Of a stretch of DNA of 64,000 nt, positions 52,035 through 55,334 are shown in pieces. The stretch is from Eubacteriales bacterium (GTDB lineage Bacteria; Bacillota; Clostridia; Oscillospirales; CAG-272): contig JAZSBL010000010.1 in NCBI GenBank assembly GCA_045602385.1, positions 18,802 through 82,801 of the forward strand. The letters are read 5' to 3'. The position numbers and the translations under genes are program-made. The notes beneath the pieces are model-generated. The model was given only the letters and a program-made list of their open reading frames with translations, was not told the DNA's origin and searched no databases. Each line of letters opens with the position of its first letter. Position 1 is the stretch's first letter.

Positions 52035-54776
52035 CTATTCGTTAACTATCCCAACATTGATAAGCGTAGGATAATTTCCATTTGAAATGTTCCAAATTGA
52101 GTTCTTCCAACCCAGCGTTGTCTTTTGGAATGATGATGACTTCAAGGTAGATATGGCACTCGTTGTCCCAAGTCTATTTGTTGGCTCATAAGTGGTAGTA
52201 CTATTCTGAATCACGGTAAACGTTTGCCCGCTATTAGAATAACAGTTATTGACTGAACTTGTTGCTCCCGTCTGATAAGCAACTACTCCTCCTGCATACC
52301 CGCCATAAGAACTTGCTATGGAAACCATCACAGAACCAGTTGCAAAGCTATAATTAATAGTTCCACCATCATCATTCACTCCAACCAATCCTCCAGCATA
52401 AACATAATATGTGCCTCCGCTGGTACTGCTCACCTTCCCCGTTGCGTAGCAATTATCTATTTTTCCGTTCTCATTTCTACCGACAAGTCCTCCGGCACGT
52501 CCGTGATAACTACCGGCAGATATTACTTGTCCAGTTGCATAGCAATTGCTGATAGTTCCCTCATAATTTTGTCCAACTAAGCCACCAGTGTTATTGTTTC
52601 CACTAGTTGTGCCACTATTAGACGACTTTACGATTCCTGTTGCATAACAAGCACTTATAGCGCCCTGATAATTTGTGCCTACCAGTCCACCTGTACAATT
52701 TGTTGAATTACCCATTGTCGAAGCTGTTACGTTTACTGATGCATAGCAATTGCCAATTGTTGCTCCATCTTCATTATAGCCAACTAACCCGCCTACGTAC
52801 GCTCCACGACTTGAGACGGTTATCGAACCATTCGTATAACAATTTATTACACTGCCGTAGTTAAATGCAACTAATCCACCCGCATACAAGTTTCCATCTG
52901 TGCTGGCGTCTATAGTGAAGCTCTCTACACCAAGATTCTTTATTGTTCCGCCATTGTGGGCAAATAAGCCTACCCAACAATTATCATTGCTGGTAATTTT
53001 GAAATTATAAATAACATGGCCATCTCCATTCAACGTTCCTGTAAATGGTTTGCTTGATTCAGGAAATAGTCCTGTCCATTCTACGCCGTACAGATTAATG
53101 TCGTTCAATAACAGGTAATTCTTATCTCGCTTCATCGCTTTAAGTTGATCTGCGTTGCTTATCGATATCACTCCGCATAATGTGCACGTTTGATTGTTGA
53201 AAACATGCCCCCATCTCTTTTCACATGTGTTGTAATCGCATCTCGAACATGTATCATAAGCATCCCAACCCTTTACTGAACAAGTGGGTTTTTTCGCTTC
53301 ATGATGTATTAGGTCGTGTCCCAAAGCATCTCCGTATATATAGGTTGAGCTACCCCTTGCTGTACAATTTTCACATTTGTAATAATAGATTGCGCTATCA
53401 TGACAACTTGCAGGAGTTTTTAAGTATGTTGATGTGGCAGTCTTAGAAGTATAGCTATGGCCAATTGCTGGTATCGTTTGATATGTTGTTGTATAACCAC
53501 ACATAGAACAACTTGCATAAGCTTCCCACCCCGCTTTAGTGCATGTAGCTTCTTGTGCCTCGTGTTCTACAAGTGTTGTTCCAGCGGGAATTATTTCATA
53601 CGTATTATAGTCACATCTTGTACATGTCACATAATCCTTATATCCATCGTTCACACATGCATCATAATCACCGGTATGTTCAACTATGTCGTGCCCAAGA
53701 GCTTGAATAAGCTCATATGATGTATAATCACACTTTTTGCATGTAACGTATTCGTTCCAGCCTGTCTCTGTACAGGTTGGTTCTTTTGCACCATGAAATA
53801 GTTCCTCATGTCCCAGTGCCGGAATCTCTACGTATGTAGTATAGTCACATTTCAAACATGCCGTATACTCTTCCCAGCCAATTTCAACACATGTTGGATC
53901 TTTCGAACCATATGTTATTTCGTCATGACCAAAAGGCGGTATTTCTTCGTAAGTAGAATAATTACATCTATAACATGTAACATATTCCTCCCATCCACAC
54001 TCAGTACATGTGGGATCTTTGGCCTCATGTAAAATAGTAATATGTCCAAGTGCAGGTTTCTCTATATATGTTGTATAATCGCATTTTAAACAAATTACAT
54101 AATCATCCCACCCTTTACCATAACATGTTGGCGACAAGCCTGGATACTCCACCACATCATGACCAAGTGCCGCTTTTTCAATATATGTTGAATAATCACA
54201 TCTTGTACAAGTGACATATTTATCCCATCCTATCTCTGTACAGGTTGGTGTTTTTGCCTCGTGCAATTTTTCATCATGACCAAGTGCTGGTTTTTCTGCA
54301 TAAGTTGAAAAACCACATCTTAAACAAACGGTATATGCATCCCATCCTATTCCAATGCATGTGGGGGATTGGCTGTCATACTGCTCATTACAATGTCCAA
54401 GCGCCTCAATACTCTGAGTTTCCTTCTCACCACACGCACAATTTCTTTCCATCACTCCCTCTTTAGTGCAAGTAGCGGAAATCATCGCTGACCACTCACC
54501 AAAAGAGTGAACATGAGCCTCAGCACCTTCTTCGTCATCGATTGTTTCTTTTTCCGTTGTGGCTTCTTCAACAGTTGTTTCTGCCACTGTGGTCCCTTCT
54601 GCTATTGATTCTTCAATAGTTATCCCTTCAACTATTGCTCCTTGCTCTACTTTAGTAACATCATTGTTCTCTCCCTTGGCTGTAGCCATACTCTCATAAT
54701 TATTATTGCCACCACATGCCACGAAAAAAATCATACTAAAAGCCATAGCGAGCAACAACACCAAAATCTTCTTCAT
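52035..54776 (-). CDS. large secreted lipoprotein with ~11 Cys3-His 39-aa tandem repeats and C-terminal GLUG-motif repeats
   Basis: Lipobox FVAC|GG after MKKILVLLLAMAFSMIF. Repeats of ALGH-x8-9-PTC-x5-GW-x2-Y-x2-C-x2-C-x-Y, then 7-8 GGLVG..N.G.I.NCYATG units. Start trimmed to ATG 54776 (SD GGAGGAAAAG). Hand counts on two 60-nt lines give 35-38% GC. Confidence 0.7.
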   Translation of the reverse strand: MKKILVLLLAMAFSMIFFVACGGNNNYESMATAKGENNDVTKVEQGAIVEGITIEESIAEGTTVAETTVEEATTEKETIDDEEGAEAHVHSFGEWSAMISATCTKEGVMERNCACGEKETQSIEALGHCNEQYDSQSPTCIGIGWDAYTVCLRCGFSTYAEKPALGHDEKLHEAKTPTCTEIGWDKYVTCTRCDYSTYIEKAALGHDVVEYPGLSPTCYGKGWDDYVICLKCDYTTYIEKPALGHITILHEAKDPTCTECGWEEYVTCYRCNYSTYEEIPPFGHDEITYGSKDPTCVEIGWEEYTACLKCDYTTYVEIPALGHEELFHGAKEPTCTETGWNEYVTCKKCDYTSYELIQALGHDIVEHTGDYDACVNDGYKDYVTCTRCDYNTYEIIPAGTTLVEHEAQEATCTKAGWEAYASCSMCGYTTTYQTIPAIGHSYTSKTATSTYLKTPASCHDSAIYYYKCENCTARGSSTYIYGDALGHDLIHHEAKKPTCSVKGWDAYDTCSRCDYNTCEKRWGHVFNNQTCTLCGVISISNADQLKAMKRDKNYLLLNDINLYGVEWTGLFPESSKPFTGTLNGDGHVIYNFKITSNDNCWVGLFAHNGGTIKNLGVESFTIDASTDGNLYAGGLVAFNYGSVINCYTNGSITVSSRGAYVGGLVGYNEDGATIGNCYASVNVTASTMGNSTNCTGGLVGTNYQGAISACYATGIVKSSNSGTTSGNNNTGGLVGQNYEGTISNCYATGQVISAGSYHGRAGGLVGRNENGKIDNCYATGKVSSTSGGTYYVYAGGLVGVNDDGGTINYSFATGSVMVSIASSYGGYAGGVVAYQTGATSSVNNCYSNSGQTFTVIQNSTTTYEPTNRLGTTSAISTLKSSSFQKTTLGWKNSIWNISNGNYPTLINVGIVNE
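53169..54515 (-). repeat. 117-bp (39-codon) in-frame tandem repeats inside the lipoprotein gene
   Basis: GH anchors at ORF residues 153, 192, 231, 270, 309, 348 and 387 are spaced exactly 39 aa apart, followed by four looser copies. Confidence 0.8.
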
Positions 54777-54960
54777 TTTCTTTTCCTCCGCTAAATAAAA
54801 AAGTGCGCAGCCGAAGCTACGCACAAAAAACACGCGCTCCGATTGCTGCGACACAATTTTTCACCAATTCCAAAAATGAGAAAAAGGAGTACGTATTTTT
54901 ATCCATTAATAAAAATACCCACTTTTGAAATTGGATAATATTAAATTGTGTCGCAGCATT
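54777..54960 (-). promoter_or_regulatory. ~178-nt structured 5' leader with an intrinsic terminator (candidate riboswitch/attenuator, class unknown)
   Basis: A 16-bp long-range stem (54958-54943 with 54859-54844), and terminator GTGCGTAGC-uucg-GCTGCGCAC plus U-run (54824-54793) just before the SD. Confidence 0.5.
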
Positions 54961-54989
54961 ATTATATCACTCTTTTTTTTCCTTGTCAA
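54961..54989 (-). promoter_or_regulatory. perfect consensus sigma-A promoter for the lipoprotein gene
   Basis: On the minus strand, TTGACA (54989-54984), 17-nt spacer, TATAAT (54966-54961). Confidence 0.65.
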
Positions 54990-55027
54990 GCACAAAAATA
55001 ACACCCATCGTGGTGATGGGTGTTATT
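54990..55027 (-). terminator. intrinsic terminator after the small ORF 55023-55334
   Basis: On the minus strand, AATAACACCCATC-accac-GATGGGTGTTATT followed by TTTTGTGC. Confidence 0.8.
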
Positions 55028-55334
55028 CCTCGTGGTATTCGTCGCATTCGTCGCAATAATCGTCATAATCGATCGAATGCTCGTTGCCTTTCTCGTCAAT
55101 ATAGGTATCGTAATCCTCATGGGGATCATCTCTGAAGCGAGAGGCTCTCCTCTGCTCTTTTTCCTCTCTGCGCCGCCGAGAGCGCGTGACGTATTCCTCG
55201 TCCTCGTTATCGTCGTAATAGTCGTATGTCTTAGGCGCGCGGGGCTTTATTCCCCTCTCGGCGCGCCATTTTGAATCTATTTGTCCAATTACAATTACAA
55301 CAACGACGACAATTATAACCTGCAGCACCCACAT
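55023..55334 (-). CDS. small membrane-anchored protein with a highly charged D/E/R/Y-rich tail
   Basis: 103 aa; TM segment VLQVIIVVVVVIVIG, then a low-complexity acidic/basic tail. ATG lies 2 nt after the coaD stop, and the ORF has its own terminator. Confidence 0.45.
   Translation of the reverse strand: MWVLQVIIVVVVVIVIGQIDSKWRAERGIKPRAPKTYDYYDDNEDEEYVTRSRRRREEKEQRRASRFRDDPHEDYDTYIDEKGNEHSIDYDDYCDECDEYHEE

Follow-up and report, generated by a model that had tools for sequence, protein, structure and literature searches.

A promoter-coupled, terminator-bearing leader RNA family of gut and rumen Clostridia, absent from Rfam 15, with a copy before a GLUG-repeat lipoprotein gene

Terminator-based attenuators and pseudoknot-type OFF riboswitches (preQ1-I, SAM-II/V, fluoride and ZTP) are leaders that resemble the RNA family described here in several respects: a structured leader lies close to the promoter, a terminator stands directly before the Shine-Dalgarno (SD) sequence, and mutually exclusive helices are under selection. 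A further likeness to the OFF riboswitches is the pseudoknot topology, in which the 3' tail has a loop or bulge further upstream as its partner, as it can here. Unlike those systems, however, the present family has no competitor helix for its terminator and no ligand-pocket-like junction common to its two subtypes, its downstream genes are functionally unrelated, the promoter lies within the conserved unit, and no Rfam family matches it.

Other known systems share the overall layout. In phage lambda, the strong constitutive promoter PR' gives rise to a terminated RNA of ~190 nt (6S RNA) that ends at tR', and read-through is brought about by the Q antiterminator. The likeness is that downstream genes are reached only on terminator override; in contrast to lambda, no Q-like or NusG-paralogue gene was found for the leader family, its RNA is highly structured and multi-copy in chromosomes, and it occurs on just two unverified virome scaffolds. 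Type III toxin-antitoxin loci (ToxIN) consist of a promoter, a noncoding RNA, a terminator and a protein gene, with the terminator setting the RNA-to-protein ratio. They too place a terminator between an abundant noncoding RNA and a downstream gene, but the leader family lacks their tandem short repeats, and its downstream proteins are not one endoribonuclease family. Lastly, in Clostridioides difficile the leader of cwpV is reportedly a switch in which a segment inverts through RecV. As in our family, a sigma-A promoter, a segment flanked by inverted repeats and a leader terminator precede a surface-protein gene, whereas in the leader family the orientation is fixed in 110/110 loci and the helices covary as RNA.

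The locus was found in the window, the whole stretch of 64,000 nucleotides that was analyzed, where positions 54989-54793 of the minus strand are a complete promoter-to-terminator module. Its features, together with the start of the gene that follows, are these:

54961-54989, minus strand: sigma-A promoter, consisting of TTGACA, a 17-nt spacer and TGaTATAAT (extended -10)
54943-54954, minus strand: P1 5' strand, GCGACACAAUUU, an inverted-repeat arm that at the DNA level reaches 54958
54942-54935, minus strand: internal loop with the conserved NAAUA motif, which separates P1 from P1b
54920-54934, minus strand: P1b 5' strand, CCAAUUUCAAAAGUG, a variable rod extension that pairs with 54878-54864 in the minimum free energy (MFE) fold
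54909-54918, minus strand: alpha, GUAUUUUUAU, the 5' strand of hairpin H, which pairs with 54902-54893
54886-54900, minus strand: X, AAAAAUACGUACUCC, the 3' strand of H plus the CUCC bulge, complementary to alpha and to the tail
54864-54878, minus strand: P1b 3' strand, CAUUUUUGGAAUUGG, from the MFE fold
54848-54859, minus strand: P1 3' strand, AAAUUGUGUCGC, the other inverted-repeat arm, which reaches 54844
54841-54847, minus strand: linker AGCAAUC, unpaired and conserved (family consensus RRCAAUC)
54825-54840, minus strand: tail, GGAGCGCGUGUUUUUU, which pairs with X (14/15 pairs) and whose terminal U-run directly abuts T2
54793-54824, minus strand: intrinsic terminator T2, GUGCGUAGC-UUCG-GCUGCGCAC plus UUUUUUAUUU
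54774-54789, minus strand: SD GGAGG (54789-54785) and ATG (54776-54774), the start of the GLUG-repeat lipoprotein gene

The promoter is as the original prediction described it, with 12/12 hexamer matches (TTGACA at 54989-54984 and TATAAT at 54966-54961). It also has an extended -10 TG at 54969-54968, and it is the sole 12/12 match in a 5-kb scan. The upstream gene has its own terminator right before this promoter, so that the leader unit is insulated. Across the family, 148/156 copies have exactly 6 nt between a -10-like hexamer and the G that opens P1, and at 9/10 positions or more the 10 nt after this G can pair with a segment lying 70-240 nt further downstream; this regular spacing argues that the family RNA begins at the first base of P1, and the window transcript should, by this prediction, start at G54954. 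Such a start leaves 178 nt to the ATG, in agreement with the distance proposed earlier. It also changes the closing helix: the perfect 16-nt inverted repeat (54958-54943 versus 54859-54844, with 83 nt between the arms) from which a 16-bp P1 had been derived is present in the DNA, but the transcribed P1 comprises 12 bp (54954-43 with 54859-48). Strong promoters were found in nearly all of the 144 family copies examined, with a -10 hexamer matching at 5-6/6 positions in 126, a TG in 122 and a -35 hexamer matching at 4/6 or better in 118, and the window copy shares the family's extended -10 sigma-A promoter 6 nt before the P1-opening G.

At the other end of the module, the T2 hairpin (GTGCGTAGC-TTCG-GCTGCGCAC in the DNA, at 54824-54803, followed by TTTTTTATTT, T6AT3) is a Rho-independent terminator with 9 pairs (6 GC), a UUCG loop and a U-tract, and it is followed by the SD, again as predicted. 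Its stem covaries: in 18 reduced-subtype sequences 100% of the cells are paired and 4/9 pairs carry compensatory changes. T2 is present in essentially all family copies. The gene behind it is an ORF at 54776-52035 encoding 913 aa with GLUG repeats (Pfam Glug, 1.7e-30). Between promoter and terminator, the 191-nt leader has an MFE of -69.7 kcal/mol, compared with -40.3 +/- 4.0 kcal/mol for dinucleotide shuffles (z = -7.4; 0/200 shuffles as stable). Altogether, the window leader is a functional RNA and a member of a conserved multi-copy family, far beyond chance.

That the leader has homologues became apparent from a BLAST search against its own genome (1.71 Mb, 54 contigs), in which other sites share the P1 3' strand, the tail and part of the terminator, in the common order promoter, long closing helix, inner domain, CAAUCGGAG..GCGUUUUU segment, UUCG-type terminator, SD and gene. 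A profile search of this genome gave 8 loci, corresponding to about eight copies, among which C41 and C48 mark opposite ends of a single locus and C1 is degenerate. The window copy itself is matched by an nhmmer profile built from relatives (E = 5.6e-14) and carries the 3' module of the family, namely the P1 3' strand, the RRCAAUC linker, the GGAG...GYG-U5 tail and the UUCG-type terminator. When the window copy was used as the query, matches were found in 24/41 related genomes; with the paralogous copy C15, matches were found in 30/41, with up to 11 copies each. Moreover, the 21-mer ACAATCGGRGTTTGCGTTTTT, which includes the nearly invariant linker (alignments A2 and A3), was found in no fewer than 118 contigs from GTDB species representatives, and the carriers among the matches listed are all metagenome-assembled genomes of gut or rumen Clostridia, e.g., Christensenellaceae, Oscillospiraceae, Acutalibacteraceae and Lachnospiraceae. 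In an even sample of 401 genomes of the class Clostridia, a 19-nt tail motif (at most 1 mismatch) was found in 63 genomes, about 16% of those sampled, and in 39/217 genera, while the reversed-pattern control gave 1 match.

None of the 4227 models of Rfam 15 matched the window at the gathering threshold; the best result of a permissive scan of the leader was a plant miRNA model, at 27 bits versus a gathering score of 130, and three paralogous leaders matched nothing. No description of the family was found by a full-text literature search or in a human-microbiome RNA catalogue (PMC8040213). The leader is therefore a copy of a folded leader RNA family that is widespread in gut and rumen Clostridia and has no entry in Rfam 15. 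The original prediction of a structured, promoter-proximal riboregulator-type leader of no known class agrees with these results, and the possibility it had allowed for, that the leader might be unique, is contradicted by homologues in related genomes in which P1, H and T2 covary. The family's kind, a terminator-bearing cis-leader, is known, whereas its layout is unusual.

Two subtypes can be distinguished. The common, full type of the family has P1 and P1b, which lead to a junction where a short P2 hairpin (..UAYACCCUUUUUU) meets a long P3 with the cap GAAUUU-GGUAAAAAYGC-AAAUUC; the P1 3' strand comes next, then RRCAAUC as the linker, GGRGUUUGCGUUUUU as the tail and finally T2. Strong covariation of both P1 and T2 is seen in 22 diverse copies of this type: column pair 5/174, for instance, has AU in 14 copies and CG in 8, and pair 11/168 has CG in 12 copies and UA in 10. 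The window copy has neither P3 nor the three-way junction, and belongs instead to a reduced subtype in which a rod (P1, the NAAUA internal loop and P1b) is capped by the single AU-rich hairpin H, which is followed by a CUCC-U5 bulge. Full-length homologues of this subtype, with 74-85% identity, were found in at least 10 contigs of related genomes and on one virome scaffold. The linker, the NAAUA bulge and the P2 loop are near-invariant unpaired motifs, and the alignments contain no sensor-like invariant junction common to the two subtypes.

In the reduced subfamily, compensatory changes affect 4/12 P1 pairs; in the full type they affect most P1 pairs. Homologues retain a stem at the position of P1b with different sequences, and P1b was left out of the formal pair counts because MAFFT misaligns this variable stem. 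In the 18-sequence alignment of the reduced subtype, hairpin H (alpha:X) has 96.6% of its cells paired and 4/10 pairs changed on both sides, a score equalled by 0/500 shuffles.

The second partner of X is the tail. All copies have an X of 15 nt with complementarity to the tail upstream of T2; in the full type X reads AAAAAYGCAAAUUCC and is made up of the P3 cap loop and 3' strand, and in the window the tail segment GGAGCGCGUGUUUUU (54840-54826) and X (54900-54886) form a 15-bp long-range helix with 14/15 pairs. This helix was overlooked in the original prediction. Copies with diverged tails show matching changes in X: for 20 distinct diverged tails, the mean energy of a tail with its own X is -16.4 kcal/mol, compared with -12.8 for the same tails with the consensus X and -14.0 for the consensus tail with their own X. 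The window copy shares this copy-specific compensation, its X:tail helix having -17.0 kcal/mol with the cognate partner versus -10.7 when either strand is exchanged for the consensus. For 39 distinct tails, complementarity to the upstream leader was compared between cognate and non-cognate pairs, and the difference (cognate minus non-cognate) is -2.64 kcal/mol (p = 1.4e-6).

Covariation leads to the same picture. X:tail alone is 90.5% paired in the 18 reduced-subtype sequences, with 4 pairs changed on both sides and 5 more with one-sided wobble changes; P1, X:tail and T2 taken jointly have 93% of cells paired and 12 pairs changed on both sides, while 0/500 shuffles equal the score and slid controls are 34-50% paired. 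In the full type, X:tail is 98.8% paired and nine positions vary solely by G-U-compatible changes, which points to a constraint on the sense RNA, not on the DNA. In addition, columns 74-76, which lie in X, covary with alpha as well as with the tail, which argues that H and X:tail, two mutually exclusive helices, are both under selection. The logic of alternative pairing that had been proposed from the window sequence is thus real, but the partners are different ones.

As to how the two states relate, in the reduced subtype the rod is at least ~9 kcal/mol more stable than X:tail combined with an open P1, a weak point of the attenuator reading set out below. Judged by linker lengths (7 nt + 10 nt versus a rod of ~26-30 bp), it is plausible that P1 and X:tail coexist as a pseudoknot. 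In a fold-back model, P3 would lie along P1 and bring its loop to the tail, so that lengths should correlate positively; this model was rejected because rho = -0.51 was observed. The distance from X to the P1 end is constant, at ~46 nt. Where X:tail comes closest to T2, its A4-5 / U5-6 block shows essentially no variation, and T2 follows 0-2 nt further on.

Competition between a terminator and an antiterminator, on which riboswitch and attenuator logic had been proposed, was not found. Over 102 distinct terminators, no leader segment covaries with the T2 arms: cognate minus non-cognate complementarity is -0.05 kcal/mol for the 5' arm (p = 0.85) and +0.17 kcal/mol for the 3' arm (p = 0.35), the tail with its -2.64 kcal/mol being the control. 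With no RNA competitor for T2, read-through can be regulated only if a factor takes part.

The units stand before genes. An SD-led ORF on the same strand follows 101/118 units, mostly with 16-30 nt between the U-tract and the start codon, a gap that leaves no room for a separate promoter, so that the downstream genes depend on read-through. Their products form an incoherent set. Among 90 downstream proteins searched against Pfam, 12 are BspA-type LRR proteins and most have no match; the others include zinc-ribbon, XRE HTH and YpsA/SLOG proteins, collagen-like and Listeria-Bacteroides repeats and a glycosyltransferase, and many of the proteins have lipoboxes or transmembrane segments. The copies in the window's own genome stand before genes for membrane proteins, for two lipoproteins, for a SLOG-like protein and for a 61-aa Cys-rich peptide. 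The leader is used in a modular way: the identical leaders L162 and L163 stand before different lipoproteins, and the orthologous leaders C15 and L010 before different genes. Homology stops at the T2 U-tract, and the unit is accordingly best described as a portable head for accessory genes.

Based on these results, we favor a reading in which the module is a transcription attenuator placed before diverse accessory genes, with the choice between H and X:tail setting read-through; from the sequence comparisons we give it a probability of about 0.5. The leader probably limits the transcription that reaches accessory surface and membrane genes. The sigma-A promoter should fire at G54954, and the first 12 nt of the RNA close a long rod (P1 and P1b) capped by H. 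On this reading, termination at T2 would be the fate of most transcripts. The RNA so produced would measure ~155-160 nt (200-230 nt in the full type), paired from +1 onward at the 5' side and closed off by the UUCG hairpin at the 3' side, and the lipoprotein gene would be expressed only via read-through. As the tail emerges, its GGAG may seize the exposed CUCC (a loop in the full type) as a toehold and displace alpha from H. The resulting X:tail helix would have the anatomy of an intrinsic terminator or hairpin pause, with an upstream A-tract, a G+C-rich base, U5-6 and an organised 'loop' of ~50 nt, and it would abut T2. The choice between H and X:tail may then tune pausing or termination, and hence the level of read-through, and would probably be shifted by a putative trans-acting factor or condition. 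If X:tail is itself a terminator, it makes two stops in series with T2, and the attenuator reading gives no reason for a second stop.

Several kinds of factor were searched for. A NusG paralogue (LoaP / UpxY-like) as antiterminator was rejected, as 36/41 genomes have one NusG gene each and no extra copy tracks the leader. No recurrent neighbour regulator was found when the 1078 ORFs within +/-4 kb of 110 loci were clustered all against all, the sole sizeable cluster being the downstream LRR lipoproteins. Furthermore, no trans-RNA target was found for the conserved single-stranded loops, whose complements in the genome are only the leaders' own antisense strands.

The first alternative to the attenuator reading is that the terminated RNA is the real product: an abundant, very stable sRNA or RNP scaffold of ~160-230 nt, made from ~8 strong promoters per genome, whose leaky terminator is borrowed by the genes behind it to be expressed at a low level. 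The consensus promoters in most copies, the 5' end paired at +1 and the 3' end in a UUCG-loop hairpin would all suit such an RNA, as would a T2 that has no RNA competitor and downstream genes that have no function in common. Tandem units, with a promoter each and no ORF in between, are also found, and this arrangement fits a free-standing RNA gene equally well. However, a free-standing sRNA gene has no need of the SD and same-strand ORF that follow 101/118 units, the conserved single-stranded motifs have no complementary target in the genome, and the specificity of X:tail lies within each copy. We regard this alternative as a genuine possibility, clearly less probable than the attenuator reading.

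A more specific form of regulation is equally tentative, namely that the unit is a self-contained, promoter-coupled RNA switch of a new class, in which the exchange among alpha, X and tail senses a ligand, a protein or the speed of RNA polymerase. One speculative sub-variant starts from ENE-type U-A-U triple helices (PAN, MALAT1), which clamp RNA 3' ends and bind the poly(A) of eukaryotic or viral RNAs. Like an ENE, the leader offers suitable strands: T2 lies between two U-runs, the conserved A4-5 run of X pairs with one of them, and the polarities would allow five U-A-U triples with the 3' U-tail, as a geometric possibility; unlike in an ENE, the partner would be the U-tail of a bacterial terminator and not a poly(A) tail. 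The A-run of X, the U-run of the tail and the 3' U-tail might thus form a triple helix clamping the 3' end, which, if formed, would explain why the A/U block never changes to G-C. To our knowledge, such a U-A-U clamp of a 3' end would be the first for bacteria.

It is rather unlikely, but still a serious rival like the RNA-product explanation, that the leader is a constitutive cassette, in which a strong promoter, a 5' stabilising rod and a fixed attenuating terminator give acquired accessory genes a stable, capped low expression, with H and X:tail serving only to guide folding. This would agree with the reuse of the same leader before unrelated genes, with the two subtypes having no sensor-like invariant junction in common, and with the searches for a trans-acting factor (NusG, neighbour genes and trans-RNA) that found none. 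Nevertheless, the three-way covariation of two exclusive helices and the near-invariant unpaired motifs exceed what a passive stabiliser needs.

The switch of the original prediction, in which an open P1 frees its 3' strand to pair with the T2 3' arm as an antiterminator, fares worse and appears improbable. The pairing can be drawn in 93.8% of cells in the reduced subfamily, with one position compensated in 4 sequences (GC to AU), but another pair is broken without compensation in 6/18 sequences, the two segments are unrelated in copy C52, and, as given above for 102 distinct terminators, cognate and non-cognate complementarity of the T2 arms to the leader do not differ. Such an antiterminator, being directed at the 3' arm, would also need faster kinetics than the 5' arm next to it.

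An invertible DNA switch of the cwpV type, in which the P1 arms are recombinase sites and the orientation of the interior decides whether the terminator forms, was rejected as highly improbable. Long inverted repeats do lie between a promoter and surface-protein genes, in many copies per genome and with a conserved repeat core (ACACAA), but the interior has one and the same orientation in all 110 loci (105/105 profile hits and the 5 remaining reduced copies) and in every relative inspected. Moreover, P1 and X:tail contain G-U pairs, the interior helices covary as RNA, and no recombinase gene recurs nearby.

Least probable of all is translation-coupled attenuation by the 29-codon uORF (ATG 54906-54904) that stops inside the T2 5' arm, as this uORF exists in the window but has no SD and is not conserved in close homologues (the ATG is absent from L164 and L185 and in another frame in L163), and the full type's sole recurrent ATG, inside X, is ACG in 13/22 copies; a leader-peptide attenuator was rejected on these grounds. 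A T-box leader was likewise rejected, with no Rfam T-box match and downstream genes unrelated to amino-acid metabolism. Two mobile origins were also considered. A MITE reading was rejected: homology spans the transcription start to the T2 U-tract, terminal inverted repeats belonging to the unit are lacking, and conservation of the promoter hexamers is at the level of consensus only. Phage origin was rejected too, as IMG/VR gave 0 exact-motif matches and INPHARED only the two unverified virome scaffolds, which are faecal and carry a complete unit each.

Overall, the architecture is unusual, as the promoter is fused to the fold and a terminator-like long-range helix stands right before a second terminator that has no RNA competitor. 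If the family is a regulator, a single RNA design would govern hundreds of accessory genes with no relation to each other, among them genes for BspA-type LRR, GLUG and collagen-like lipoproteins, small membrane and Cys-rich proteins, XRE and SLOG proteins, in gut and rumen Clostridia that are abundant but for the most part uncultured. It would then offer a handle on how the surface proteome is set, as well as a compact promoter-leader-terminator part for engineering Clostridia; and should the self-contained switch prove true, it would act as a gate for a large share of the accessory surface and membrane genes of gut Clostridia.

In the window, the leader of the reduced type that precedes the GLUG-repeat lipoprotein gene is bordered upstream by the following features:

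55023-55334, minus strand: small ORF after coaD
55027-54997: 13-bp hairpin terminator belonging to this ORF, at its end

As this terminator adjoins the -35 box of the leader, the leader unit and its lipoprotein gene look like a self-contained insertion in the interval between the coaD operon and uvrB.

Units were also observed in other settings, listed here with a degenerate copy from the same genome:

JAZLIC010000057.1, minus strand, approximately 295-880 of the reverse-complemented locus (L094): two to three leader units, head to tail
MT835503.1:468-537 region (L195): complete leader unit
MT835845.1:2167-2235 region (L196): complete leader unit
Contig C1:57857-58000, minus strand, own genome: degenerate leader copy

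In the tandem locus, the order is full-type unit, reduced-type unit, 62-aa ORF; each unit has its own promoter and its own terminator (T2), with no ORF between units. MT835503.1 and MT835845.1 are unverified scaffolds designated 'Bacteriophage sp.' and derived from human faecal viromes; of their units, one is of the full type and one of the reduced type, each with a compensated pair of its own between segment X and the tail abutting T2. Regarding the C1 copy, the 5' arm of T2 has been deleted and a new promoter stands in place of the 5' strand of the closing helix P1, while X and the tail, the latter now bearing a U8 run, are retained together with the SD and a 183-aa lipoprotein gene. This copy is a natural variant in which the X:tail plus U-run element is the sole remainder.

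A conserved NAAUA motif (window 54935-54942, minus strand) has its counterpart in every copy, approximately 11-14 nt in from the 5' end, within the 5' strand of the rod. Whichever the subtype, the motif is a bulge or an asymmetric internal loop, and it could serve as a site of protein or tertiary contact.

Concerning the genes behind the leaders, a Cys-rich peptide of 54-71 aa (..ITG.E..PGEP.VCLGNGEQGFECCCDECDYFLLCFPE..), for which no Pfam match was found, recurs downstream of several different leader variants:

C41:11003-11101 / C48:17703-17757, own genome, two contigs joined across the leader preceding the peptide
L053, L126 and L176, family loci elsewhere

Over the compared stretch of 163 transcribed nt (TSS to T2 U-tract), the leaders of loci L162 (G015:C84) and L163 (G008:C52) do not differ, whereas their downstream genes do, encoding a collagen-like repeat lipoprotein and a Cys-repeat lipoprotein of a type related to that of the window. 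Homology between units stops at the T2 U-tract, which suggests that genes have been swapped 3' of the leader unit.
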